64,000 nt of DNA from Bacteroidota bacterium. GTDB lineage: Bacteria > Bacteroidota > Bacteroidia > UKL13-3. The position numbers were made by a program, and so were the translations under genes. The stretch covers positions 132,744-196,743 of the forward strand of contig CANHGM010000001.1 in the NCBI GenBank assembly GCA_947460345.1, given 5' to 3'. Positions 3,626 to 64,000 of this stretch are shown here, one piece after another; the stretch's first letter is position 1; every line of letters starts with the position of its first letter. The notes under the pieces were generated by a model. The model was not told the DNA's origin. It was given only the letters and a program-made list of their open reading frames with translations, and did not search any database.

Positions 3626-5254
3626 TTAGTTATGTGATACTATAAGTGGTAAGTTCTTTTGAGAATCGTTAGTATTTATTTGTAAAAAATAATGCCCTGA
3701 GCTTAAGTTTTGAGTATTAATTTCTAATTGATTTAAACCAGCATTTAATAATTTATTAGCTACTACTGCAACTACTTGTCCTTGAATATTTAAAATATTG
3801 ATAGTTGTAACTGAAGCTTTAGCAAGCTCTATGTTTAATGTAACTTGGTCGTTAGCTGGAACAGGGAAAGCATTCATTTCAATTGCATTTTCAACAACTG
3901 ATGAAGTTCCTAAATTAAATTGTCCACCTAATCTAGTATTCATAAAACTGTAACCTGATAAAGCTGGTGAACCTGTTTTAGGTAAAAAGTTAGGAGCAGT
4001 GTAATTAAACGGATCAACTAAATTCACATCAGCTGAATTAGTTAAATTTCTGTTGCTTCTTTTAGCATCATTAAACCATGCTTTCACATCAAATGTAGCA
4101 TCAGCATTAAAAGTACTTACTGTATCTGCATATTTAGAAATTCCAGCTATAATGTTGTTTTCAAATTGGAAATCATTATTTTTTAAGTTAGCTAAAACTT
4201 TAGCACCATCAACTAACAAACCAACTGGAAAACCAGTAATGATAGAGTTATATATAGAAACTCTTGTGTTTCTGCGGATATGAGCACCACGTTTATATAA
4301 AGTATTGATAGAATTGGTAGCATCTACTTTAGGGCCAATCACTGTCATGTTACAAAATAAAGCTGAAGAGAAAGGACTATTATCAGAACCTGTTCCATCA
4401 TTATCACTTTCAAAAGCATTAGAACCTGATTGGTCAGCTACAGCTGAATCTCTTAAAGATACTCCAAATTGTACATTACCTGAGAAACCAAAATCTGTAT
4501 CAAAATCATCATCCCAACCTTTAAAAGCTATTAACCATTTTGCATTTGCAGCACCACCAAACCACTCATAACTATCATCTCCACTATAACTCACTTGTAT
4601 ATGTTCTAAAGTTGTTCCGCTACCTACAGCACCTAAAGTTAAACCATTGATTTCGCTATTAGGCATAAAAGCTATACCAGGGAATTCTATTCTTACAAAC
4701 TTTAATGAACCTGAATTGTCAGCATTATCAGTTCCGCCATATTGACCATCACCATTAGCATTGTCAACACCACCTTCAACTGCAGCAGTTCCAGCAGTAG
4801 GATTAATTTTACCTTTACCTAAAACCACTAAACCACCCCAATCACCATAGTTACGGCTACCAGTATCTTGGTTAGAAGTGAAAACAATAGGAGAAGCAGA
4901 AGTACCTTCAGCCATTATTTTAGAACCTCTAGTAATTATCAAAGTTCCTTTAGTAGACTTATCACCACGAATTACAGTTCCTGCTTCAATAGTAAGAGTA
5001 GCACCATTTTTAACATATACAAATCCTGTCAATAAATATACTTTATCTTTTGTCCAAGTTGTGTTACTTGTAATATCTCCAGAAACATTGGTGGTGGTTG
5101 CTCCATATGCAGTATTTTTTGGAGTCCAATTTGCCCAACCTGAAGTCCAGTCAGTAGTTCCAAATGCTCCAACATAGTTGGTAGGCGTAAAAAACGATTG
5201 AGCTTTTAAACCTAAAGAGGCTAAAATAGCTAATAATGTAATTGCTTTTTTCAT
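3626..5254 (-). CDS. Secreted beta-helix-like protein with T9SS type A sorting domain (partner of the adjacent TonB receptor)
   Basis: Signal peptide, the family motifs GDWGGLVVLG, EINGLTLGAVG and DDSYEWFGG...DDDFDTDFG, and a C-terminal FPVPA...G.YFLQI CTD. Confidence 0.85.
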   Translation of the reverse strand: MKKAITLLAILASLGLKAQSFFTPTNYVGAFGTTDWTSGWANWTPKNTAYGATTTNVSGDITSNTTWTKDKVYLLTGFVYVKNGATLTIEAGTVIRGDKSTKGTLIITRGSKIMAEGTSASPIVFTSNQDTGSRNYGDWGGLVVLGKGKINPTAGTAAVEGGVDNANGDGQYGGTDNADNSGSLKFVRIEFPGIAFMPNSEINGLTLGAVGSGTTLEHIQVSYSGDDSYEWFGGAANAKWLIAFKGWDDDFDTDFGFSGNVQFGVSLRDSAVADQSGSNAFESDNDGTGSDNSPFSSALFCNMTVIGPKVDATNSINTLYKRGAHIRRNTRVSIYNSIITGFPVGLLVDGAKVLANLKNNDFQFENNIIAGISKYADTVSTFNADATFDVKAWFNDAKRSNRNLTNSADVNLVDPFNYTAPNFLPKTGSPALSGYSFMNTRLGGQFNLGTSSVVENAIEMNAFPVPANDQVTLNIELAKASVTTINILNIQGQVVAVVANKLLNAGLNQLEINTQNLSSGHYFLQINTNDSQKNLPLIVSHN

Positions 5255-5300
5255 GTGTTAATTAATTATAATTTTAATGAGGCAAAATTCAAAAGCTGTT

Positions 5301-5412
5301 GTTGCGGTATAGTTATGCTCAAGTTAAATATATGTTAAGGTATTAAATTCATATCCATTTGATTTACAAGCGTATTTACATTAAGTTAACACTCGAATAA
5401 CAATCGCATAAT
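5301..5412. promoter_or_regulatory. Two mirror-image arrays of 11-bp-periodic direct repeats (putative OmpR/PhoB-family operator boxes)
   Basis: GTTGC/GTTAT/GTTAA/GTTAA at 5301, 5312, 5323, 5334, and TTTAC/TTAAC/ATAAC/ATAAT at 5375, 5386, 5397, 5408. Confidence 0.5.
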
Positions 5413-5469
5413 AGTAAGAATACCTTGAGGTAATATTTAATTTTGAATTTTGCATATAAATAAATACAG

Positions 5470-8337
5470 ATGAAAAAAGCTAGTTTACTCTTATTATTAA
5501 ATGTATCATTATTTTTTGCTGCACAAGCTCAAAAAGAAATAGACAGTCCAATTGCTGAAATTGGAAATATTAAAAAATCTAATACGAATGTAAAATCTAA
5601 TACAGGAATTGTTTTTGGTAAAGTTGTGGATGAAAAAACAGGAGAATTATTATCAGGTATAGCAGTATATATTGATGGCATGAGTGTAGTTCATAACACT
5701 GACGGATCAGGAAAATTTAACATCAATCTAAAACCTGGTGTTTATACTTTAATTTTTAAAAACGCTGCCTATGTTACTAAAGAAGAAAAAAATATAGAAG
5801 TAAAAATAGGTGACGAATTAAATGTAAATATAGTTTTAGAACCTGCAAGTGTAGAATTAACTGGTGCAGTAGTTAAAGGTAAAGGCAAAAAAGAAACCAT
5901 GGGTGCTTTGCTTATTCAACAAAAAAATGCCCAAGCAGTAAGTGATGGCGTATCTATTGAAACCATAAGAAAAACACCAGACAGAAATACAGCTGATGTA
6001 ATGAAAAGAGTGAGTGGTACGAGTATCCAAGACGGTAAGTTTGCTATTATAAGAGGATTGAATGATAGATATAATGCTGCATATATAAATGGCTCTCCAT
6101 TGCCTAGTACTGAGGCTGATAAAAAAGCATTTTCATTTGATATGATTCCTTCCATAATGGTTGATAATATTACCATATCTAAAACAGCTACGCCTGACAA
6201 AACTGGTGAGTTTGCAGGTGGAATTATAGAAATAACTACACGAGATATTCCTGAAAAAAGATTTTTTCAAGTACAGTATGGAAGCAATTACCACAGTGTA
6301 AGTACCTTCAAAAATTATCAAACATATAAAGGAAGTAGTACTGATTGGCTTGGATATGACAATGGTACCAGACAATTGCCTAGTTCTTTCGCTTCGTCTG
6401 CTGATTATACCAAAGCAAATATTGCTACACAAATAGAGCAAAGCAAGTCATTAAACAATGATTGGGCTATTCAACAAAAAAAATCATTTGCACCTGGCAA
6501 CACTTTTTCATTGGTAGGAGGTTTGCCTTATAAAATAGGCAAAAAAGAGGCAGGTGTTTTTATTGGTATCACTTATAGCAATCAAAATAGATTTGTTAAA
6601 GCTGAAAGAAACGATTTTGACCAGCAAGGCAATGTTTTTAGTTATATAGATTCTGGCTATAAATCAAACGTATTAGGTGGGATTATTTTTAATAACAGTA
6701 TCAAGATTGCTCAAGGGCATAAAATTAGTTTCAAAAACTCTTTAAACATCAATAGCGAAAATCAAATGGTGGTAAGACAAGGAACAGATTTCGCTTCAGG
6801 TAATTATATAAAATCTTATGCCTATATATTTAACCAAAATTTGTTAACCTCAAGTCAATTAACTGGTGACCATTTATTTCAAACGCAAAAAATCAAAATC
6901 AATTGGAATATAGGATATAGTTATATAAACCGTCAAATCCCTGATTACAGAAGAGTGCGTTATACCATGCCAACTCCTGAAAACCAAGACCCTGACAACC
7001 CTCAAGATTACTGGCAAGCAGTTGTATCGCCTAGTGCTTCACCTAATGATGGTGGCCGTTTCTATTCAAAATTAAAAGAACACGTGTGGAGCGGGAGTGT
7101 AAATTTTACAAAAACCGTGAGAGTAAAATCTTCTAAAATTGATCTTAAATCAGGCTTGGCTTTAATAGACAGAAGTAGAGATTTTAGTGCTAGAGTATTG
7201 GGATATATCACCAACCCACAATTTAATTACAATATCGCCAAACAAGATGTTCAAGATATTTTCTCAGAAGCTAACATGAATATTAAAGGGTTCAGGTTAT
7301 CAGAAAGCACTAACCCTAGCGACCAATACACAGCTAGTAGTAGATTGTTTGCCGCATATGCCATGGCCGATCAAAGAGTAACAGAAAAGCTACGTTTGAT
7401 TTATGGTGTGCGTTACGAATATTTTCATCAAATGCTTCAATCTAGAGATTATACAAACAAACCTATAGAAATTGATACTAAAAAACCAGATTGGTTGCCA
7501 AGCATCAACCTTTCATATGCTTTAAATAAAAAATCTAACTTAAGAATGGCGGCTTCTCAAACTGTATCGAGACCAGAGTTTAGAGAACTTGCTCCATTTG
7601 GATTCTTTGACTTCAATCAGTTTGTATCAATGCAAGGCAATAGCAAATTACAAAGAAGCTTAATCAGAAATTATGACCTCAGATATGAAACATACCCGGG
7701 TGATGGTGAAGTTTTTTCAGTAAGTACCTTTTACAAGCAATTTATAAACCCAATTGAAATAGTTCTTGACCCAGCCATTGGCGGAGGAACCAGAAGCATG
7801 ACTTATCAAAATATAGACAAGGCACAAGCTTATGGGTTAGAATTAGAATTCAGAAAACGTTTACCAGCATTGTCTTTTGCAAGATTCACTAAATATATAA
7901 CTTTCAGCACCAATGCTTCATATATAGTAAGTAAAGTAGATGTATCAAACTTAACCGCTTCTGGCAGAAAATTCAGACCATTACAAGGACAATCTCCATA
8001 TATTGTTAACGGAACTTTAAGTTTCCAAAACAAGGGGTGGAGTATCAATGCAGCATACAATGTAGTAGGCCCTAGAATATCTAACGTAGGAACTGCAAAC
8101 TATTTAGAATATTACGAAAAGCCACGTCACATCATCGATTTACAAATTAGCAAATCATTTAAGAAAGATAAAATTGATATCAAACTAAACGTAGCTGATT
8201 TGCTCGCTCAAAACTTAGTCTATTACCAACCAATATCTGTTCCTACTGGCGAAACTATTAATATTAAAAACACCCGCCCCATGAACACTATATATAATGG
8301 AAGAAGTGTTACATTGAGTTTAAGCTGGAAATTATAG
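5470..8337 (+). CDS. TonB-dependent receptor with N-terminal carboxypeptidase-regulatory-like domain
   Basis: Plug motif IRGLNDRYN...NG.PLPS, KTATPD..GEFAGG.I.I.T, a beta-barrel body and an aromatic C-terminal strand (LSLSWKL). Confidence 0.93.
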   Translation: MKKASLLLLLNVSLFFAAQAQKEIDSPIAEIGNIKKSNTNVKSNTGIVFGKVVDEKTGELLSGIAVYIDGMSVVHNTDGSGKFNINLKPGVYTLIFKNAAYVTKEEKNIEVKIGDELNVNIVLEPASVELTGAVVKGKGKKETMGALLIQQKNAQAVSDGVSIETIRKTPDRNTADVMKRVSGTSIQDGKFAIIRGLNDRYNAAYINGSPLPSTEADKKAFSFDMIPSIMVDNITISKTATPDKTGEFAGGIIEITTRDIPEKRFFQVQYGSNYHSVSTFKNYQTYKGSSTDWLGYDNGTRQLPSSFASSADYTKANIATQIEQSKSLNNDWAIQQKKSFAPGNTFSLVGGLPYKIGKKEAGVFIGITYSNQNRFVKAERNDFDQQGNVFSYIDSGYKSNVLGGIIFNNSIKIAQGHKISFKNSLNINSENQMVVRQGTDFASGNYIKSYAYIFNQNLLTSSQLTGDHLFQTQKIKINWNIGYSYINRQIPDYRRVRYTMPTPENQDPDNPQDYWQAVVSPSASPNDGGRFYSKLKEHVWSGSVNFTKTVRVKSSKIDLKSGLALIDRSRDFSARVLGYITNPQFNYNIAKQDVQDIFSEANMNIKGFRLSESTNPSDQYTASSRLFAAYAMADQRVTEKLRLIYGVRYEYFHQMLQSRDYTNKPIEIDTKKPDWLPSINLSYALNKKSNLRMAASQTVSRPEFRELAPFGFFDFNQFVSMQGNSKLQRSLIRNYDLRYETYPGDGEVFSVSTFYKQFINPIEIVLDPAIGGGTRSMTYQNIDKAQAYGLELEFRKRLPALSFARFTKYITFSTNASYIVSKVDVSNLTASGRKFRPLQGQSPYIVNGTLSFQNKGWSINAAYNVVGPRISNVGTANYLEYYEKPRHIIDLQISKSFKKDKIDIKLNVADLLAQNLVYYQPISVPTGETINIKNTRPMNTIYNGRSVTLSLSWKL

Positions 8338-28387: not shown

Positions 28388-29494
28388 TTGAAATATTATC
28401 TCATAGCAGGTGAAGCTTCTGGCGATTTGCATGGTGCTAACCTTATCAAAGAGCTAAAACTACTTGATGCTGATATAGACATTAGGTGTTGGGGTGGCGA
28501 TTTGATGCAAGAGCAAGGAGCTACCTTAGTTAAACACTACAAAGAATTGGCTTTTATGGGTTTTAAAGAAGTGGTGGCCAATATTAACACCATATTTAAA
28601 AACATTGCTTTTTGCAAAGAAGATATAGCAGCCTATAAACCAGATGTGGTGGTGTTTATTGACTATCCGGGGTTTAATCTCAGAATAGCCGAATATGTGC
28701 ACCAAATAGGTATTAAAACTGTTTACTATATATCGCCACAAGTGTGGGCTTGGAAAGAAAACAGGGTGAAGAAGATCAAACAATGCATAGACCTCATGAT
28801 ATGCATACTACCATTTGAAAAAGATTTCTATAAAAAATGGAATTATGACGCCGCTTATGTGGGTCATCCGTTGCTCGATGCCATTCAGAACATTGATACC
28901 GATATACATTTTAGAGCCAAACACCATATCGACAGCAAGCCCATAATAGCGTTGTTGCCCGGAAGCAGAAAACAAGAAATAGCCAAGATGCTACCTTTGA
29001 TGTTAGAGCTTAGTAAAAAACACCAAGAGTATAATTTTGTGGTGGCTGCTGCCCCAGGTCAAACATTGGCTTTTTACCAAACATATATACAAGCCTATCA
29101 AAACTGTTTTATCGTAAAAGACCAAACATATACCTTGCTGAAAGAGTCTTACGCGGCGTTGGTCACCTCAGGAACTGCTACCCTAGAAACCGCTTTATTT
29201 AATGTGCCGCAAGTGGTCTGTTATAAAGGGAGTACTATCAGTTATCAAATAGGGAAAAGATTGGTGAAAATTAAATATATATCACTAGTCAATTTAATAT
29301 TAGACAAACCTGCGGTGGTAGAACTGATACAAGGAGATTTTAATATGCAGAAACTCGATCAAGAGTTTACCCAAATAACTACGGGGGCTAAGCGAAGTCA
29401 TATACTTCATGACTATATTCAGTTGAAAGATATTTTAGGAAACTCAGGTGCTTCGGCTAAAGCGGCGGGGATTATATATAAACAACTGGTATAA
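28388..29494 (+). CDS. lpxB: Lipid-A-disaccharide synthase
   Basis: IAGEASGDLHG, IDYPGFN, YYISPQVWAW, LLPGSR..EI and TSGTATLE motifs. Confidence 0.96.
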   Translation: MKYYLIAGEASGDLHGANLIKELKLLDADIDIRCWGGDLMQEQGATLVKHYKELAFMGFKEVVANINTIFKNIAFCKEDIAAYKPDVVVFIDYPGFNLRIAEYVHQIGIKTVYYISPQVWAWKENRVKKIKQCIDLMICILPFEKDFYKKWNYDAAYVGHPLLDAIQNIDTDIHFRAKHHIDSKPIIALLPGSRKQEIAKMLPLMLELSKKHQEYNFVVAAAPGQTLAFYQTYIQAYQNCFIVKDQTYTLLKESYAALVTSGTATLETALFNVPQVVCYKGSTISYQIGKRLVKIKYISLVNLILDKPAVVELIQGDFNMQKLDQEFTQITTGAKRSHILHDYIQLKDILGNSGASAKAAGIIYKQLV

Positions 29495-29577
29495 GACTTT
29501 TATTTACTCCGCCTTTACAAACTTTATAGTTTGTATATTTTTTTCATCATCAAAAATATTCAATATACAATTACCGT

Positions 29578-29648
29578 TTGTCAATATAGATACATCAATC
29601 AAATGGTTTGGTATATGTGGAAAAAACATTGTCCTTGTATGCTATAAG
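29578..29648 (-). repeat. Degenerate direct repeat of the tRNA-Ala 3' region (putative att-site remnant)
   Basis: TTGTCAATATA-N15-TGGTTTGGTATA-TGTGGAAAA at 29578 aligns with TTGTCAATATA-N14-TGGGTTGGTAAATTGTGGAGAA at 30924. CTTGTATGCTAT (29634) resembles CTTGCATGCCAT of the tRNA anticodon arm. Confidence 0.5.
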
Positions 29649-29724
29649 TGTTATATTAGTACGAAAATTGAAAACCAAAATATAATTCCTTAGAAATATT
29701 ACTATTGAATATAGTTTGATTATA

Positions 29725-30000
29725 TTATTTGTTTGTTTCAAAGAAACAAACATTCTGAATCAATTCTTTTTTTAAACCATATCGGTATTCCATACTGAAA
29801 AACTCACGGACATATCTTTTTATTGAGTATTGGAGGTGTTTTTTAAGTTCGGTGAGGGTAAAATTCGTTTCAGAACTATTCTGTTGAATTACGACATAAT
29901 ACAATCTATTTTGTAGTAGTTTCTTCACATCTTCAATCATTCGTTTCTGATGAGGTTTTAATGGATATTGTTTCAATACATAATCTATAATTTTTATCAA
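29725..30000 (-). CDS. Hypothetical protein, alanine-free (start uncertain: TTG 30000 or ATG 29940)
   Basis: 91-aa ORF inside the island with no recognisable motif. It may be a gene fragment. Confidence 0.35.
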   Translation of the reverse strand: MIKIIDYVLKQYPLKPHQKRMIEDVKKLLQNRLYYVVIQQNSSETNFTLTELKKHLQYSIKRYVREFFSMEYRYGLKKELIQNVCFFETNK

Positions 30001-30005
30001 TAAAC

Positions 30006-30037
30006 AATCAAACCAAAGGTAAATCTTTGGTCTGATT
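30006..30037 (-). terminator. Putative hairpin terminator after the island's small-ORF operon
   Basis: aatcaaaccaaag-gtaaat-ctttggtctgatt inverted repeat (one mismatch on the + strand), about 75 nt downstream of the stop at 30110. Confidence 0.45.
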
Positions 30038-30109
30038 ATTTGTTGTTGGGTCTTTTTACAGAAGACAAGAACTGAAAACCCGTAATGGTTTTGACTTTCC
30101 CAATGACCG

Positions 30110-30262
30110 TTATTTTTTCAATCTTTCTAATTTAACCTTATACTCATCAATTCCAATTTTCAATCTCAATACTTCTTTCTTTTTAGGGTCTTTCTCTTCT
30201 TGTAATTTTATTCTATTTTTCGTTATTCTATCCTCAATTTGTCTAATCTTTTCAAAATTCAT
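30110..30262 (-). CDS. Small basic coiled-coil-like protein, 50 aa, alanine-free (not in the supplied ORF track)
   Basis: My translation: MNFEKIRQIEDRITKNRIKLQEEKDPKKKEVLRLKIGIDEYKVKLERLKK*. It starts 10 nt after the stop of the 72-aa ORF. Confidence 0.65.
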   Translation of the reverse strand: MNFEKIRQIEDRITKNRIKLQEEKDPKKKEVLRLKIGIDEYKVKLERLKK

Positions 30263-30272
30263 TTCATAAAAA

Positions 30273-30491
30273 TTATATTTTATCTAATCTCTCAATTAGT
30301 GTCTCTTCCATCAACTGGAAGAGTATTTCCTTTTTGTAGAGGTGTTGGTTTTTGTAAATAACATAGTCATTATTTGAAACTCGTTTTATATCTCTTTTGA
30401 GTTTTGACCTATGGGTTTTTACAATAGACTGAATGGTGTTGAAGTCATATAAACCATCACTTCCGTTTATTCTGTATTCTACTATTTTCAT
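30273..30491 (-). CDS. Small hypothetical protein, alanine-free, possible HTH/excisionase-like DNA-binding protein
   Basis: 72 aa with an ATG start overlapping the upstream ORF. LYDFNTIQSIVKTHRSKLKRDIK resembles a helix-turn-helix followed by a wing (weak inference). Confidence 0.6.
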   Translation of the reverse strand: MKIVEYRINGSDGLYDFNTIQSIVKTHRSKLKRDIKRVSNNDYVIYKNQHLYKKEILFQLMEETLIERLDKI

Positions 30492-30753
30492 ATAGTTTTT
30501 TTATTTTTTTATACTCATTGATGAGGTCATCAATTTTGTCTTCCTCATTCTCTTCAATGGGTTCTTCTGATGTTTGGTCTTCCTCATCTTGAATATTTTT
30601 TTTGAGTTTTCTTAATCTGTTTTCATCAAACTCAAAATCATCTTCTGTTTGTGGTTCAACCTCATCTTGGGTTTCATCTTCAATTTTTGGATTAGGATAT
30701 TTCTCTAAAATGAATTTGATAAAATCGGTCTGAATGTGTTTTCCTTTTCTCAT
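30457..30753 (-). CDS. Acidic low-complexity hypothetical protein, alanine-free
   Basis: 98 aa with an ATG start, a D/E-rich centre and basic ends. First gene of the island operon. Confidence 0.6.
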   Translation of the reverse strand: MRKGKHIQTDFIKFILEKYPNPKIEDETQDEVEPQTEDDFEFDENRLRKLKKNIQDEEDQTSEEPIEENEEDKIDDLINEYKKIKKLYENSRIQNKRK

Positions 30754-30901
30754 AAGAGTTGTAATTATTTTTTAGTCCAACCTTGGTTGGATTACTCTTA
30801 TATGTATTGAGATAGAAAAGTTGAGTTTGAGAAGAAAGGATTTTTTATAGAAAAAGGAAACGATAAAATGTTACACACATTTGTTTTACACTATAAAATC
30901 A

Positions 30902-30949
30902 AAAAAAGAGTATAAAATATTGATTGTCAATATATTTATACTCTTTTTT
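30902..30949 (-). terminator. Long hairpin downstream of tRNA-Ala
   Basis: aaaaaagagtataaa-atattga-ttg-tcaatat-a-tttatactctttttt. Confidence 0.7.
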
Positions 30950-30963
30950 GGGTTGGTAAATTG

Positions 30964-31037
30964 TGGAGAATATCGGAGTCGAACCGATGACCTCTTGCAT
31001 GCCATGCAAGCACTCTAGCCAGCTGAGCTAATCCCCC
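30964..31037 (-). tRNA. tRNA-Ala(GGC)
   Basis: Reverse complement GGGGGATTAGCTCAGCTGGCTAGAGTGCTTGCATGGCATGCAAGAGGTCATCGGTTCGACTCCGATATTCTCCA. It has a G3:U70 pair, anticodon GGC, a GTTCGA T-loop and no encoded CCA. A TAAATTTG -7 element lies at 31054-31047. Confidence 0.97.
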
Positions 31038-31138
31038 TTGATGCTACAAATTTATGTGTTTTAGTGTATACCTAATAATATTTCTGCTTTTTGTAGCTAT
31101 AGCAATTTAAATACATGAACCATTGTAAAGCCCACAAC

Positions 31139-31192: not shown

Positions 31193-32221
31193 TTATGCAT
31201 CTACCTCTACTTTTACCTTTACGCCGCCTGAGAATGCCTTCTCTTTTATTTTCATTTCTATTTCTTCGGCAAGTTCGGGGTTGTCTTCTAACATCTTCTT
31301 CACTGAATCTCTGCCTTGCCCAATTTTTGTGTCGTTATAGCTAAACCATGAACCACTTTTTTTGATGATTTCATAATCTACACCTAAGTCTACTATTTCG
31401 CCATTTTTAGAGATACCCTCGCCATACATAATATCAAACTCTACTACTCTGAATGGAGGTGCTACTTTGTTTTTGGCAATTTTAACCTTAGTTCTATTTC
31501 CTACTATTTCAGTTCCGTCTTTTATTTGTCCAATTCTTCTGATGTCTAACCTTACTGAAGCATAAAACTTTAAAGCATTACCACCCGTAGTGGTTTCAGG
31601 GCTGCCAAACATTACTCCAATTTTTTCTCTCAATTGGTTGATGAATATACAACAACAGTTGGTTTTGTTGATGGTACCTGTTAGTTTTCTAAGAGCTTGG
31701 CTCATCAAACGGGCTTGTAACCCCATTTTGCTGTCGCCCATTTCTCCTTCAATCTCGGCACGAGGAACCAATGCCGCTACAGAGTCGATCACGATGATAT
31801 CTATAGCTCCTGATCTGATTAAGTTATCTGCTATTTCTAAGGCTTGCTCTCCGTCGTCAGGTTGTGAGATGAGTAAGTTAGCAGTGTCTATGCCTAAACG
31901 CTCAGCATAAGCTTTGTCGAAAGCATGCTCTGCGTCTATAAATGCTGCCATACCGCCTTGTTTTTGAGCTTCGGCAATGGCGTGCATAGACAATGTTGTT
32001 TTTCCTGAAGACTCAGGACCATATATTTCTATTACTCTACCTTTGGGCAAACCACCAATGCCTAATGCTATATCTAAGCCTAATGAACCCGTAGGCAATG
32101 CTTCTACATTCTCTACTTTGTCATCGCTTAGTTTCATGATAATGCCTTTGCCAAACTGCTTTTCAAGCCTCTCTAATGTTGCTTGTAAAGATTTACTTTT
32201 TTCGTTATCTGCTGATGCCAT
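31193..32221 (-). CDS. recA: Recombinase RecA
   Basis: GPESSGKTT Walker [26 protein letters not shown] and [10 protein letters not shown] motifs. Confidence 0.99.
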
Positions 32222-59839: not shown

Positions 59840-61307
59840 AGAAAACAACTTTGAAGATGTATTTAAAAACGCTTTTGAAGGCTTTGAAGGTGAGCCATCA
59901 AAAGATGTTTGGAATACAATTGCTAAAGACAGGGAAATGAAACAAAATTTGGGGTTGGTTGAACAAACCCCAGAAAGTGTATTTTCTAAGGTCTTCAATA
60001 ATTTCACTTCAAATCCATCAAGTGGTGTTTGGTTTGGTATAAAAGATTTTTTAATCAAAAAAATGTTTTACCGCCGTTTAAAATACTTTTTGTTTTTCTT
60101 GTTGTTTGTTGGTGGCATTGCTACCTTGTATTTCAATATCGATTCTTCACCTGTTAAAAATTCATCTACACCTAAAAACAATAAAAAAGGTTTAGTTGAA
60201 AATAAAAAAACTATTGAAATTCCATTTGATAAAATTACATCAACCAACACACCTTCTATAATTTCAACAAATACATACAAACAAGTTCCAACAGAAGGCA
60301 ATGCTAAAGTTCAAAATATATCTTTAAACAAGACTAATAATAGTAAATATAACAACTCAAATGATTTAAACTTTACTTTAAAAGCAAATAGTTTAAATGT
60401 AAATAAAGAGCAATCGTCAGACAATGAAGTTTTGATTCAAGATAACTTAGAATTAACAAAAGATGAAAAAATATTGACTATTGATAGTGCTAATTTAATC
60501 CCAGTAAAAAATGATGGAGTTACTCAATCTTCAAAGACTAAAAGCTTAAAGAATAGCGAACAAAATAAAAACAATAAGAAAGTAAACAACTATGTAAAAT
60601 ATACAAAAGAAACAGATATTAATAACGAAGAATCAAAGTTTAAAATTGGTATCATGTCAGGAATAGATTATGGAAATTTTACATTAAAAGGTGGAAATGA
60701 AATATATAAAGATGTGAGGAAAAACCAAGAATTATTCAGACCAACATCTTTCCACAGTGGTATCACATTCTCATATATGATAAACGAACATTGGTATATA
60801 CAAGCAAATGGAGTTTTTGCTAACCAAGCCATGAATGTTGCTTACAACAAAAAAATAGTTAAACCAGATACTACAAGAGATGCTTTGGGTAATATAACAA
60901 AAATAGAAAACAAAGTACTATTTAATGTTGACACCAATACTCATTATGCATTTTCTACATTTGAAATTCCATTAATGATAGGATATAGGTTTGGAGATAA
61001 AAGATGGACATTCCATGCAATGGCAGGTCCTGAATGGAGCTTAATTTTAAGTAAAAGAGGAGGCATGTTGTCAGCAAGTTCAATGAAAGTTGAGTCTATT
61101 GAGAACAATAATATTCCAACAGTTAAACAAATATGGGGCATGTGGTTAGCCATGGGAGGTAGCTATCAAATGAGCCATCAATATAGTATCACTGTAGAAC
61201 CAATTTTCAGATATAAATTTAACTCAATATTTAATTCTACCTATCCTGTCAAACAATATAATTATGCAACCGGTATAAACTTAGGAATAAGATACCATTT
61301 TAATTAA
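59832..61307 (+). CDS. Putative anti-sigma factor fused to an outer-membrane beta-barrel (PorT-like) domain
   Basis: N-terminal F...F..FE.EPS..VW..I motif, a TM helix, an N/K/S-rich linker, and beta-strands ending GINLGIRYHFN. Overlaps the sigma gene stop. Confidence 0.7.
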   Translation: MNKENNFEDVFKNAFEGFEGEPSKDVWNTIAKDREMKQNLGLVEQTPESVFSKVFNNFTSNPSSGVWFGIKDFLIKKMFYRRLKYFLFFLLFVGGIATLYFNIDSSPVKNSSTPKNNKKGLVENKKTIEIPFDKITSTNTPSIISTNTYKQVPTEGNAKVQNISLNKTNNSKYNNSNDLNFTLKANSLNVNKEQSSDNEVLIQDNLELTKDEKILTIDSANLIPVKNDGVTQSSKTKSLKNSEQNKNNKKVNNYVKYTKETDINNEESKFKIGIMSGIDYGNFTLKGGNEIYKDVRKNQELFRPTSFHSGITFSYMINEHWYIQANGVFANQAMNVAYNKKIVKPDTTRDALGNITKIENKVLFNVDTNTHYAFSTFEIPLMIGYRFGDKRWTFHAMAGPEWSLILSKRGGMLSASSMKVESIENNNIPTVKQIWGMWLAMGGSYQMSHQYSITVEPIFRYKFNSIFNSTYPVKQYNYATGINLGIRYHFN

Positions 61308-63520
61308 TTTGCATTTATCATATATGCTCCCTCTTCATAAGTAAAATGAACAGGAATAGACAAATTCTTTAGTTCATTTTTCCATCTTTTTATTAGCCAA
61401 AGTTTATTGTTTCCATCAATTACAATTTGTTTGCAATTAATTTTATTAACTATTTCTTTTAAAAATATTTTAGGACTACAACTGACAAGAACACAATCTA
61501 TTGGTTTAGAAATTGTAGGAATATTTTTAGTGTCTATTCTAAACAAATATACTTTATTAAATATATATAAATTATTACTTGATTTAATATTTTTATTCTG
61601 AATGACAGAATTAGATTTCATCACTCTTATCTTATCAATATAACTGTTCATCAAATGAGGTTTAATTTTCAAATCAAAAAGTTTGTTAAAATTAAAACAT
61701 GATGAATCAGAAATAACTATAGATTCTTTACCATTTAAAAAAGAAAAAGTAGTATTTTTAGGCCAATGATATATCCAAACTTCTTGTTGTTCTTGGTGTC
61801 TTATATCTTCAATAGATTTAGAAAATGTTAGCATGATCAAGGTAAATAAAACTGCCCAAATCCAATTTTTATTTTTATATACAATAATAAAAGCACTAAA
61901 GAGGATCAAACAAGCAATAAGTATAGCTTGGGGTAAACTAATAACCAAATCATTAGTAGTTGAATAGGGAATTTTATCAATAGTATATACCAATTCGTCA
62001 GTTAAGTATATAGTAGCATTTAATAACCATCCACAAGCTTGTGCTAGTATAGGAATAGAACTAACAGCCAATAAAATTAAACCTAAGTAGGTAATAAGAG
62101 TTGACAATGGAATGATTAATAAATTACTTAGTAAAAAATAGTTAGGAAACTGGTGGAAATAATAAAAACTAAAAGGACATGTTGCAGCTTGGGCCGCTAT
62201 AGACACGCACGATATATTCCAAATTTGATCTAATATCCAATATTTAGGTTGGTAAAATTGATATAGTTTGGGATGCAAAAAAATGATGCCTAAAACAGCA
62301 CAATAAGATAATTGAAAACCTACATCATAAACGAGTAAAGGATTATTCACTAATAAAATAAAAGCTGAAGCAGCAATAGAATTATATATGTTAATATTTC
62401 TATTTAATCCAATACCTATGGATATAAAACTAAACATTAAAGCCGCTCTAAGAACAGAAGGAGAAAAACCAGTAAGCATAGCATAAAACCACAACAAAAT
62501 AATAACTATCACCGTTTTTAACATAAGAAATTTCCTTTTTTTGTTCATAAAAGACAATAAAAAAGTTAGTACAGTATATACAATTCCTACATGTAAACCA
62601 GAAACTGCTAACACATGCAAAGTGCCCGTATGTGCATATGCATTTACAAGGTCTTTATCTAACTCTTCTCTATAACCGAATATTAAAGCAGCAGCAACTC
62701 CACTTTGTGTTTTGTTAGGTATGTATTTCTTATAAACTTCAAATATTTTGGTTTTTAGAAAATATGACCAATTCATAAATAGATTACTATTCCCATTTGA
62801 CCATTTTAACCATTGATTTGAATTAAGTCTTTGTGAGAAATATATATCATTGTTTTCTAAATATTTTTTATAATTAAACTCAAAAGGGTTTTTAGGAGAA
62901 TCAGTTTTTTGGGGATTAAAATATATAAGAAGTTCACTTCCGTATTTTATATTTTCAATAGCCTTTGATTTCTCAAAATATAAAAGTAAATTACCTGATG
63001 TTTTATATGAATATTTATTTTGAAAGACTTGAACTACAACTGCTTTTGTTCTATATGAATTTTGAAGTTCGGTGGGGGGCTCATATATCTTTATTAAAGC
63101 TTTTGCATTAGTATCAATTAACAAAGAATTAAAATGATTTGGTGATAGAATATTTCTTTTAAGATTTACTGAAACATTCCCATAAACTATTAAAAATAGA
63201 AATAAAAAAACTCCTGTAATAAAGCTATAACTATATGATTGAGAAGTTTTTTTAATAAATATCCAGCACAAATAAAACACAAAAACTGTGCTTAACATAT
63301 AAATAGCTGAAGTTAAATCTACATCAAAAAAACTTTCAGAAATAATCCCAATTAAAAAAGGTAGTAAAAGCCTAACTATAGGCATACTATACCACTTAAA
63401 ATATACTAATCCTTGAAGTGTAAATTCTCTTTTACTATCAGTATTTGAAAATTTTTTTTCAATCCAGTTAGTAACTTTATAAAAAAGAATTTTATATGTT
63501 GAAGAATTCTTGTCCATCAA
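61304..63520 (-). CDS. comEC: ComEC/Rec2 competence membrane protein
   Basis: NPFEFNY, G.LHVLAVSGLHVG, SPSVLRA, GFQLSY.A, and F.QFP.YFL.SNL motifs. Confidence 0.93.
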   Translation of the reverse strand: MMDKNSSTYKILFYKVTNWIEKKFSNTDSKREFTLQGLVYFKWYSMPIVRLLLPFLIGIISESFFDVDLTSAIYMLSTVFVFYLCWIFIKKTSQSYSYSFITGVFLFLFLIVYGNVSVNLKRNILSPNHFNSLLIDTNAKALIKIYEPPTELQNSYRTKAVVVQVFQNKYSYKTSGNLLLYFEKSKAIENIKYGSELLIYFNPQKTDSPKNPFEFNYKKYLENNDIYFSQRLNSNQWLKWSNGNSNLFMNWSYFLKTKIFEVYKKYIPNKTQSGVAAALIFGYREELDKDLVNAYAHTGTLHVLAVSGLHVGIVYTVLTFLLSFMNKKRKFLMLKTVIVIILLWFYAMLTGFSPSVLRAALMFSFISIGIGLNRNINIYNSIAASAFILLVNNPLLVYDVGFQLSYCAVLGIIFLHPKLYQFYQPKYWILDQIWNISCVSIAAQAATCPFSFYYFHQFPNYFLLSNLLIIPLSTLITYLGLILLAVSSIPILAQACGWLLNATIYLTDELVYTIDKIPYSTTNDLVISLPQAILIACLILFSAFIIVYKNKNWIWAVLFTLIMLTFSKSIEDIRHQEQQEVWIYHWPKNTTFSFLNGKESIVISDSSCFNFNKLFDLKIKPHLMNSYIDKIRVMKSNSVIQNKNIKSSNNLYIFNKVYLFRIDTKNIPTISKPIDCVLVSCSPKIFLKEIVNKINCKQIVIDGNNKLWLIKRWKNELKNLSIPVHFTYEEGAYMINAN

Positions 63521-63568
63521 ACTTTAGTGATTGAACAAAAATAATTCATAAAAACAATAAAGCGTAAC

Positions 63569-64000
63569 TTATTCGTCTTCTTTACAATTGTACATTTCTT
63601 GAGACTTAAAAGTTGGTGTTTCTGAATTTTCACCATTTTTAATGGCTTCACTCATCTTTAATATTAACCTTTTCCGGTTAGCCTCAATTATACTTTTAAG
63701 TCTATTTTGATCGTAAATATCATAATAACAAATACCATCTATATATGTCTGTAAAACTTTAGCTTGAATATCCATTGGGTTATTGTCCCACACAACAATG
63801 TCAGCATCTTTACCTACTTTTATACTACCTGTATGGGTATCTACACGCATCATTTTTGCGGGATTAATGGTGCAAAGCTTTATACATTCTGTGTCACTTA
63901 GTTGTCCATATTTAGCACTTTTAGCAGCTTCTTGATTAAGTCTTCTAGCCATTTCAGCATCATCACTATTCACAGCTGTTACAATGCCCATTTTATGTAA
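63569..64000 (-). CDS. Amidohydrolase family protein, 5'-truncated by the window edge
   Basis: AVNSDDAEMARRLNQEAAK, TINPAK and GSI..GKDAD.VVW motifs. The frame stays open to base 64000. Confidence 0.88.
   Translation of the reverse strand, partial: LHKMGIVTAVNSDDAEMARRLNQEAAKSAKYGQLSDTECIKLCTINPAKMMRVDTHTGSIKVGKDADIVVWDNNPMDIQAKVLQTYIDGICYYDIYDQNRLKSIIEANRKRLILKMSEAIKNGENSETPTFKSQEMYNCKEDE

Follow-up and report, generated by a model that had tools for sequence, protein, structure and literature searches.

The GpC-free island and its genes

The 64,000-nt stretch of DNA analysed here, hereafter called the window, comes from the genome of a Bacteroidota bacterium (GenBank assembly GCA_947460345.1, contig CANHGM010000001.1, positions 132,744 to 196,743) and contains, against a tRNA-Ala gene, an island from which the dinucleotide GpC (G followed by C) is completely missing. 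By dinucleotide count there are 2303 GpC in the window and 0 between positions 29642 and 30997. The resulting gap of 1356 nt is the longest GpC-free gap in the window, the second longest being 329 nt. The GpC-free sequence itself (29643-30996; 1354 nt, 28% G+C) would be expected to contain 26.5 GpC from its base composition, or 35.7 when the host GpC odds ratio of 1.35 is taken into account, and the Poisson probability of finding none is 3e-12 to 3e-16. Empty runs of other dinucleotides are not comparable, the next being a CpG-free run of 725 nt. In the whole assembly (3,000,683 nt) the runner-up GpC-free gap is 401 nt long; when the genome was divided into segments of 1200 nt, the ratio of observed to expected GpC had a mean of 1.32 (standard deviation 0.22), with 0 for the island and 0.47 as the lowest value elsewhere. 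The GpC-free stretch is unique within this 3.0-Mb genome.

We delimit the island, which we regard as the probable remnant of an integrative element, to positions 29643-30962 (no strand assigned; 0 GpC versus 26-36 expected, low G+C). It starts at the 3' end of the tRNA-Ala(GGC) gene, at 30963, and the GpC-free run extends a further 34 nt into that gene, to 30996; on the left side, GpC reappears at 29641, 29511 and beyond. A GpC-free stretch had been reported in a preliminary description made from the sequence, and it is real, although the coordinates given there were too narrow. The G+C content is 26-30% in the island versus about 37-42% in its flanks. Lake-water metagenome contigs from other studies cover positions 29200-30990 with 11-12 differences; as these contigs span the island, the sequence is real and an assembly artefact is excluded. 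None of the 12 variants inside the island creates a GpC, a count that has no power because only 1.1 would be expected to do so. A joint across the island, that is, an empty-site allele, was not found in the four lake-metagenome DNA runs compared.

Four open reading frames (ORFs) lie on the minus strand of the island and, as had been described, contain no alanine in 311 codons, where about 19 would be expected at the host frequency of 6.15% Ala. They do contain Cys, Ser, Gly and Arg, so that codons other than TGC, AGC, GGC and CGC are used for these residues. Pfam and PHROGs scans of the four ORFs gave no match below E=0.01, and a DNA search in 41 related genomes returned, outside the host genome, only matches of 50 nt or less. 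Homologs of all four ORFs were found elsewhere in the same order, at loci that are designated below by L numbers.

ORF1 (30457-30753, minus strand, from the ORF list) encodes a predicted acidic protein of 98 aa with conserved basic N- and C-terminal ends. Its comparison with a protein atlas was uninformative, and the model of its structure has a predicted local distance difference test score (pLDDT) of 0.56; syntenic homologs are present at L007, L008, L010-L013, L017 and L042. ORF2 (30273-30491, minus strand) encodes a 72-aa protein which, judged by its homologs, is a small predicted DNA-binding protein of the excisionase/HTH_17-like kind: the window protein has no Pfam match, and its homolog at L011 matches HTH_17 with E=5e-4 and 20.7 bits, which is below the gathering score of 27 bits. 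Six homologs of ORF2 were found in databases, of which five are 60-71% identical to it; these five all lack Ala. ORF3 (30110-30262, minus strand, from the ORF list and syntenic homologs) encodes a conserved Lys/Glu-rich protein of 50 aa that looks coiled-coil-like when judged by eye; syntenic homologs occur at L007, L009-L014 and L042. The fourth ORF, of 91 codons (29725-30000, minus strand), is the open part of a truncated pseudogene resembling HUH-type Rep proteins (29665-30000, minus strand), which was recognised by tblastn and by a Rep profile and retains the N-terminal half only.

State of the window copy

The Rep-like pseudogene shows where the element was cut. Residues 1-77 of the related protein P0003 align by tblastn to positions 29895-29665, across an in-frame TAA at 29725-29727, and the Rep profile aligns to the window over its positions 2-101 of 169 only, with one TAA within the alignment. 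The homology stops near 29665, just before the HxH motif and close to the left edge of the GpC-free stretch, and the fragment contains neither the HxH motif nor the YHxKQ motif that are found in full-length relatives. No recombinase ORF and none of the genes hsdR, hsdS and hsdM are present in the ORF list of the island, and a repeat search over 29400-31100 did not find a second copy of the tRNA 3' end, as would be expected of an attachment (att) repeat. The island, of 1.3 kb, compares with at least 4.4-7 kb in relatives. Since there is no recombinase and no att repeat, and since the length is short and the Rep gene cut, we conclude from the sequence that a presumed integrative element was reduced by deletion to the window copy, in which three small genes are intact and Rep is a pseudogene. 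The deletion would have begun in the middle of the Rep gene and taken the distal part, and the absence of an att repeat is consistent with loss of the distal end by deletion. Divergence since then is presumably still too small for a GpC to have been regained. The truncated, recombinase-less state of this copy was missed in the preliminary description, as was the existence of a whole family of such elements with restriction-modification (R-M) genes.

The surroundings of the island are those of a host chromosome. To its left lies lpxB (28388-29494, plus strand; Pfam LpxB, E=3.6e-95), which has normal GpC and Ala content. To its right, the host tRNA-Ala(GGC) gene (30963-31037, minus strand, identified by ARAGORN), with its 3' end against the island, is followed by recA (31193-32221, minus strand; Pfam RecA, E=9.7e-141). 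Between the 3' end of the tRNA gene and ORF1, the repeat search revealed an inverted repeat (30897-30954, no strand assigned) with arms of 20 nt that are 90% complementary and a loop of 18 nt. It also matches itself on the opposite strand, and from its sequence it may be terminator-like.

Relatives of the element and their genes

Relatives were located with an alignment of ORF2, which yielded 8 loci in reference genomes and metagenome-assembled genomes and 25 in metagenomes; a scan of viral contigs with the same alignment yielded 0 loci. Intact relatives begin with a leading module of ORF1, ORF2 and ORF3 (about 50 aa), usually followed by a Rep-like protein. We propose that these are small integrative elements of aquatic Bacteroidota, whose intact form would consist of the three-gene module, usually an HUH Rep-like nickase, a tyrosine integrase or small serine recombinase, and R-M cargo in the form of a type I hsdRSM system or a type IIG enzyme. 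The distal genes differ from one element to another. L011 carries a 1192-aa type IIG R-M enzyme, a 162-aa ORF and a resolvase-type serine recombinase; L013 carries hsdR, hsdS and hsdM; L017 carries a tyrosine integrase and hsdM; L039 carries hsdR and hsdS; and L042 carries several small ORFs and a resolvase. The type I R-M genes of L013, L039 and L017 are Ala-free, and 12 proteins of the relatives, with 4519 residues in total, contain 0 Ala. In spite of this, the Ala-free HsdR, HsdS, HsdM, type IIG, resolvase and integrase proteins are recognised by Pfam, and inspection by eye of Ala-free HsdR translations showed that the Walker A motif is kept and that the DExH helicase box reads DEVH.

The insertion sites are varied. 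The neighbouring host gene is tRNA-Arg(CCT) at L007, L010 and L020, the gene of transfer-messenger RNA (tmRNA) at L012, tRNA-Lys(TTT) at L023 and tRNA-Ala(GGC) at L016. At L013 (8714-9589) and L042 (7364-8260), which belong to different genomes, a Mg-chelatase/comM-like gene is interrupted at the same point: the Pfam Mg_chelatase match breaks off at profile position 88-90 of 207, both proteins ending in ...PHHTISD. L042 has a resolvase-type recombinase, and the L013 contig ends before any recombinase. At L008, a GpC-poor piece (1-576) holds only ORF1 and ORF2, both Ala-free, and adjoins DNA of normal GpC content with a tyrosine integrase, an excisionase-like gene and an adenine-methylase-like gene. 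This arrangement suggests that the three-gene module is found also as fragments or as a recombining cassette.

The Rep-like proteins of the relatives are 175-230 aa in length when complete. Both His residues of the HxH motif are invariant in 24 full-length or partial sequences, and near the C-terminus a nearly invariant YHxKQ is a putative catalytic Tyr motif. An AlphaFold model of the full-length protein of L010 (mean pLDDT 93.8) was matched to the ORF119 Rep of Sulfolobus islandicus rod-shaped virus 1 (SIRV1; PDB 2x3g) with Z 9.1 and a root-mean-square deviation of 2.5 Å over 108 residues, and 2x3g was the sole match above Z 8 among 48,161 chains compared with VIA-align. The top Foldseek matches were to the Rep protein of adeno-associated virus (AAV) and were weak (E ~7e-3). 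According to this model, the L010 protein has an HUH-endonuclease fold. Its likeness to the HUH Rep superfamily is one of fold, best to 2x3g and weaker to AAV Rep, parvovirus NS1, circovirus Rep and REP-associated tyrosine transposase; it differs in that no similarity of the relatives to known Rep families could be detected by sequence, and the window gene ends before the HxH motif. Among reference genomes the family is rare: of 401 sampled from the host's class, 2 contain it, that of the window included. Of its 22 representatives, 9 are Ala-free. Thus the homologs of the window ORFs, both of ORF2 and of Rep, include Ala-free proteins, as the preliminary description would lead one to expect. 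The nicking specificity of Rep was considered as a driver of the GpC loss and rejected, because Rep occurs in the GpC-containing relatives L015, L024, L027-L029 and L034 and is absent from the available sequence of the GpC-free L039 and L020.

Extent of the GpC loss in the family

Relatives from other Bacteroidota genomes and from lake metagenomes are GpC-free over 4.4-7 kb. The numbers of GpC observed were 0 versus 124 expected in L011 (7.0 kb), 0 versus 109 in L017 (4.7 kb), 1 versus 136 in L013 (6.3 kb), 1 versus 157 in L039 (6.0 kb) and 5 versus 99 in L042 (4.4 kb). Shorter stretches behaved likewise, with 0 versus 28 in L012 (1.6 kb), 0 versus 31 in L007 (1.3 kb) and 0 versus 20-24 in each of L021, L035 and L037 (about 1 kb each). 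Altogether, the 11 stretches pooled, window included (35.7 kb), contain 7 GpC versus about 775 expected. On contigs that also include host DNA, the switch from element to host is abrupt and falls at a tRNA gene, a tmRNA gene or a truncated comM-like gene, outside which the observed/expected ratio is about 1.3-1.4. All GpC-free gaps of at least 500 nt in the 33 loci (237 kb) lie within the element or continue it. When the roughly 1 kb around ORF2 was examined in the same 33 loci, GpC was zero in 9 and at most a quarter of the expected number in 6, was 0.25-0.6 of the expected number in 8, and exceeded 0.6 in 10.

A similar range was seen in the cargo. Among the best 120 of 7907 HsdR matches (63-100% identity), 61 contain 0 Ala, 23 contain 1-8 and 36 contain 10-46. 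Environmental isolates with relatives include strains of Aureitalea, Aegicerativicinus and Algoriphagus. In a midpoint-rooted tree of HsdR, which has no outgroup, Ala-free, low-Ala and Ala-containing sequences are interleaved, so that the Ala state must have changed repeatedly.

Level of the constraint and loss of alanine

In a gene without GpC, two kinds of protein sequence are forbidden: Ala, all codons of which are GCN, and Met or Trp followed by His, Gln or Pro, where GpC would arise at the junction of two codons. The six GpC-forcing dipeptides occur 0 times versus 143 expected in the 61 Ala-free HsdR proteins (59,797 residues) and 3 times versus 57 expected in the homologs with 1-8 Ala. 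The 36 homologs with 10-46 Ala have at most 4.7% Ala and 38 such dipeptides versus 95 expected; these seem to be genes in which the purge is incomplete or has been partly undone, and not ordinary ones. In the non-coding DNA of six elements (4132 nt) there are 0 GpC versus 81.3 expected, and within genes GpC is absent out of frame as completely as in frame. Because GpC is missing from non-coding DNA and from codon junctions as well as from codons, the constraint acts on the nucleic acid and the loss of Ala is a by-product, which supports the DNA-level cause favoured in the preliminary description.

The residues that stand in place of Ala were determined at 13 HsdR columns in which at least 30% of the Ala-containing homologs have Ala. 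In the Ala-free proteins, 37% of the residues at these positions are Gly and 27% are Ser, against 14% for Thr and 7% for Val. We picture one large part of the family as being kept free of GpC by ongoing purifying selection on nucleic acid and not on proteins; Ala and the six dipeptides would be lost as by-products, with small residues, mostly Gly and Ser, settling at the few usual Ala positions.

Absence of new GpC between diverged relatives

The alignment of L011 with L012 covers 1610 sites, of which 200 differ. These changes created 0 GpC versus 17.8 expected (P=8e-9), the expectation resting on about 8.9% of random changes creating a GpC. The ratio of nonsynonymous to synonymous substitution rates (dN/dS) between the two is 0.07 for ORF1, 0.15 for ORF2 and 0.09 for ORF3, and 0.07-0.16 for four core genes including Rep. 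The low dN/dS, together with the domains recognised by Pfam, indicates that the genes are real, and 200 differences without a new GpC indicate that the purge is under ongoing selection.

Palindrome depletion and the proposed avoidance of host defences

GpC is not the only word that the elements lack. In the pooled elements, the eight most depleted GC-free 4-mers are all palindromes, namely GATC (34 observed versus 221 expected), CATG (56 versus 177), GTAC (52 versus 143) and CTAG (48 versus 107), followed in order by AATT, ATAT, ACGT and TCGA. Palindromes also make up 8 of the 10 most depleted 6-mers, among them TTTAAA, GTATAC, CTATAG and CATATG. In 9 of 11 stretches, palindromes are rarer than non-palindromic words of the same base composition would predict (P<0.05), and in the window island there are 2 versus 17.5 expected (P=4e-6). 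In the partly purged relatives, the residual GpC fall into palindromic contexts less often than in host DNA (0.36 of the host share for AGCT, 0.31 for GGCC and 0 for CGCG); apart from this deficit, no pattern emerged when 88 residual GpC were examined for NGCN context, such as RGCY. The non-palindromic CTGAAG/CTTCAG is depleted as well (4 versus 18 expected). GGWCC, CCWGG, GAGTC and GGATG are also under-represented in the pooled elements. All five of these words match recognition sites of known type II, IIS or IIG enzymes.

Depletion of palindromes is the classical signature of restriction avoidance, which makes avoidance of defence targets the best-supported class of explanation. The purge would then be an extreme form of target avoidance against DNA-directed defences of the hosts, as the removal of GpC would hide an element from every enzyme with a GC-containing site. 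A general purge of palindromes does not account for the choice of this dinucleotide: GC and CG are each contained in 5 of the 16 palindromic four-mers and in 23 of the 64 palindromic six-mers, and CpG stands at 0.56-1.0 of expectation in the elements, near the host value of 0.54. CpG would be cheaper to purge, since Arg has AGR codons and no amino acid would be lost, yet it is unpurged, and we therefore suspect an agent with specificity at the level of GpC, the candidates being nucleases, deaminases and modification-dependent systems. Phosphorothioate modification was considered as such an agent and rejected, the sites named in the relevant part of a review being GpsG, GpsA, GpsT and CpsC, with GpsC not listed among them (PMC6435447).

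Taken together, the best explanation in our judgement, to which we assign a probability of roughly 0.6, is that the window contains a remnant of an element family purged of GpC by selection, likely in avoidance of defence. Several points weigh against it. L013, L039 and L042 tolerate 1-5 GpC and the members of the family form a continuum from fully purged to normal GpC, so that either the pressure is not universal or single sites are tolerated. The HsdR survey favours sequences that share 5-mers with the Ala-free query, and it extends only to the best 120 of 7907 matches. No GpC-specific nuclease or similar agent was found in this analysis, and we know of none in bacteria. A GpC C5-methyltransferase shared by the hosts was tried as a candidate and rejected, PF00145 being present in 2 of 5 host assemblies and the completeness of the other three being uncertain. 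Moreover, GpC is its own reverse complement, so that its absence cannot separate a DNA target from an RNA target; no RNA run is listed as holding the stretch, the window ORFs are predicted ones, and the four compared runs consist of DNA contigs. A further-reaching proposal, which we put forward tentatively and hold to be more doubtful than probable, is that aquatic Bacteroidota harbour an undescribed, widespread DNA defence or weapon directed at GpC, from which these R-M elements escaped by deleting the target and running a proteome of 19 amino acids.

The host DNA of the window (outside 29495-31040) itself avoids GCGC (3 versus 34 by Markov expectation), CGCG (5 versus 14) and GATC (49 versus 125), and this avoidance suggests past or present R-M systems of such specificity in the lineage.

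Alternative explanations

If the elements or a helper deployed a GpC-directed weapon against the DNA of the host or of competitors, a lack of GpC would spare them without protective methylation. The purge is indeed all-or-nothing over every NGCN context, as for an enzyme acting at the level of the dinucleotide, and nucleases are part of the cargo, alongside uncharacterised genes such as those for the 162-aa protein of L011 (with a weak MvaI/BcnI-like match, E=0.005) and for a 185-aa protein of L039. Such self-immunity is nevertheless unlikely. No candidate gene is common to all GpC-free members, their shared core being three small proteins; Rep, as described above, is present in GpC-containing relatives and missing from the available sequence of two GpC-free ones; and the cargo enzymes identified are R-M systems based on adenine methylases.

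About equally improbable is avoidance at the level of RNA, in which the lack of GC would protect transcripts from an endoribonuclease with GC in its target words, perhaps an RNase of an abortive-infection or toxin-antitoxin system; MqsR, for instance, cuts at GCU. The self-complementarity of GpC makes its absence from RNA and from DNA indistinguishable, and in such compact elements most of the non-coding DNA is possibly transcribed. However, the spacers lack GpC without exception, a divergent promoter region (L017, 1910-2236) included, and the loss of palindromes that goes with it is typical of recognition in double-stranded DNA.

A mutational origin appears still less probable. Here GpC would have been lost, not by selection, but through a cytosine deaminase that prefers GC or through methylation of GpC followed by deamination. 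The G+C content of the elements (27-31%, versus 33-40% in the hosts) and the known analogue of methylation-driven CpG depletion speak for such a process. On the other hand, C-to-T or G-to-A changes at GCN yield only Val or Thr, while Gly and Ser are the main replacements of Ala, and enrichment is seen for GA/TC and GG/CC but not for GT/AC (0.77-1.05). These two observations argue against an origin of the deaminase type and for the selection of tolerable small residues. In addition, a mutational bias alone cannot keep enzymes of 1000 residues at exactly zero GpC with low dN/dS, and a C5-methylase was not found in 3 of the 5 host assemblies.

The more speculative idea of the preliminary description, that Ala-free proteins could be expressed when tRNA-Ala or alanyl-tRNA synthetase (AlaRS) is disabled and that this is tied to insertion at tRNA-Ala, is refuted: the window copy and L016 do adjoin tRNA-Ala(GGC), but GpC is lacking to the same degree out of frame and in non-coding DNA, GpC-free relatives lie at tRNA-Arg(CCT) (L007 and L020), at tmRNA (L012) and in the comM-like gene (L013 and L042), and L016 is not GpC-free, so that no special link to tRNA-Ala or AlaRS is left.

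Comparison with known systems

Selection against GpC for the avoidance of defences has its closest precedent in the avoidance of restriction sites, mostly palindromes, by phages, plasmids and other mobile DNA, which has reportedly been established in classical work by Sharp, Karlin and Rocha. The relation between R-M systems and mobile elements is the subject of PMC4176335. In the elements as in these precedents, short palindromes are counter-selected in DNA that enters new hosts, here GATC, CATG, GTAC, CTAG and several 6-mers. The known cases, however, concern sites of 4-6 bp that are partially depleted while proteins remain unaffected, whereas the elements lose a 2-bp word completely, over kilobases and in any context, at the cost of one amino acid and six dipeptides.

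Two enzymes of chlorella viruses, M.CviPI, which methylates GpC, and R.CviJI, which cuts RGCY, show that GC specificity at the level of the dinucleotide exists in nature. They differ from the case at hand in being enzymes of viruses of eukaryotes, and the elements are purged in all NGCN contexts and not only in RGCY. No bacterial counterpart of the two turned up, no sequence search having been aimed at one.

Depletion of CpG, as described at least in part for small DNA viruses and CpG-methylating genomes (PMC2396429, PMC12050414), is alike in that a self-complementary dinucleotide is under-represented through a process at the DNA level. It is partial, largely mutational and without cost in amino acids; the elements, by contrast, have eliminated GpC, keep CpG at the host level and show a substitution pattern unlike that of deamination.

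As for their architecture, the elements resemble integrative mobilisable elements and genomic islands that reside at tRNA or tmRNA genes with defence cargo. The island lies directly 3' of a tRNA or tmRNA gene, and relatives have a tyrosine integrase or serine recombinase, a Xis-like helix-turn-helix protein and R-M cargo. They differ in the three-gene module and the HUH Rep-like protein of about 180 aa, none of which has a Pfam or PHROGs family, and the window copy differs further in having neither a recombinase nor att repeats. A full-text literature search of limited coverage returned no account of genetic elements that naturally lack GpC or Ala.

The island by itself, inert as it is, supports only a modest conclusion; what makes it noteworthy is the family to which it led. 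If the proposed selection is correct, this would be the strongest natural case of a constraint at the sequence level overriding protein chemistry, in that one of the most common amino acids has been removed from whole gene sets, while their proteins retain domain architecture and catalytic motifs and stay under purifying selection. It would also point to a dinucleotide-specific selective agent in a major bacterial phylum. Large natural enzymes made of 19 amino acids (HsdR of about 1000 residues, methyltransferases, recombinases and type IIG enzymes) speak for the ability of big enzymes to function with a reduced set of amino acids, which is relevant to reduced amino acid alphabets and genome recoding, and GpC-free runs of kilobase length offer a simple detector for such mobile elements in metagenomes.

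Other GpC-poor regions of the host genome

Two further regions of the host genome drew attention. At 60000-64000, the window is A+T-rich (24-32% G+C) and contains the 725-nt CpG-free run, which begins at 61271, several GpC-free gaps of 180-329 nt, and two long ORFs of 498 and 738 aa. These gaps are probably a mere effect of composition. Outside the window, on contig C43 of the same genome (about 4200-7600 and onward), the observed/expected ratio of GpC is 0.47-0.65 over several kb. This region contains a resolvase 33% identical to that of L011 and distant matches to hsdM and hsdR, and it may be a second R-M-carrying mobile element with GpC partly purged.

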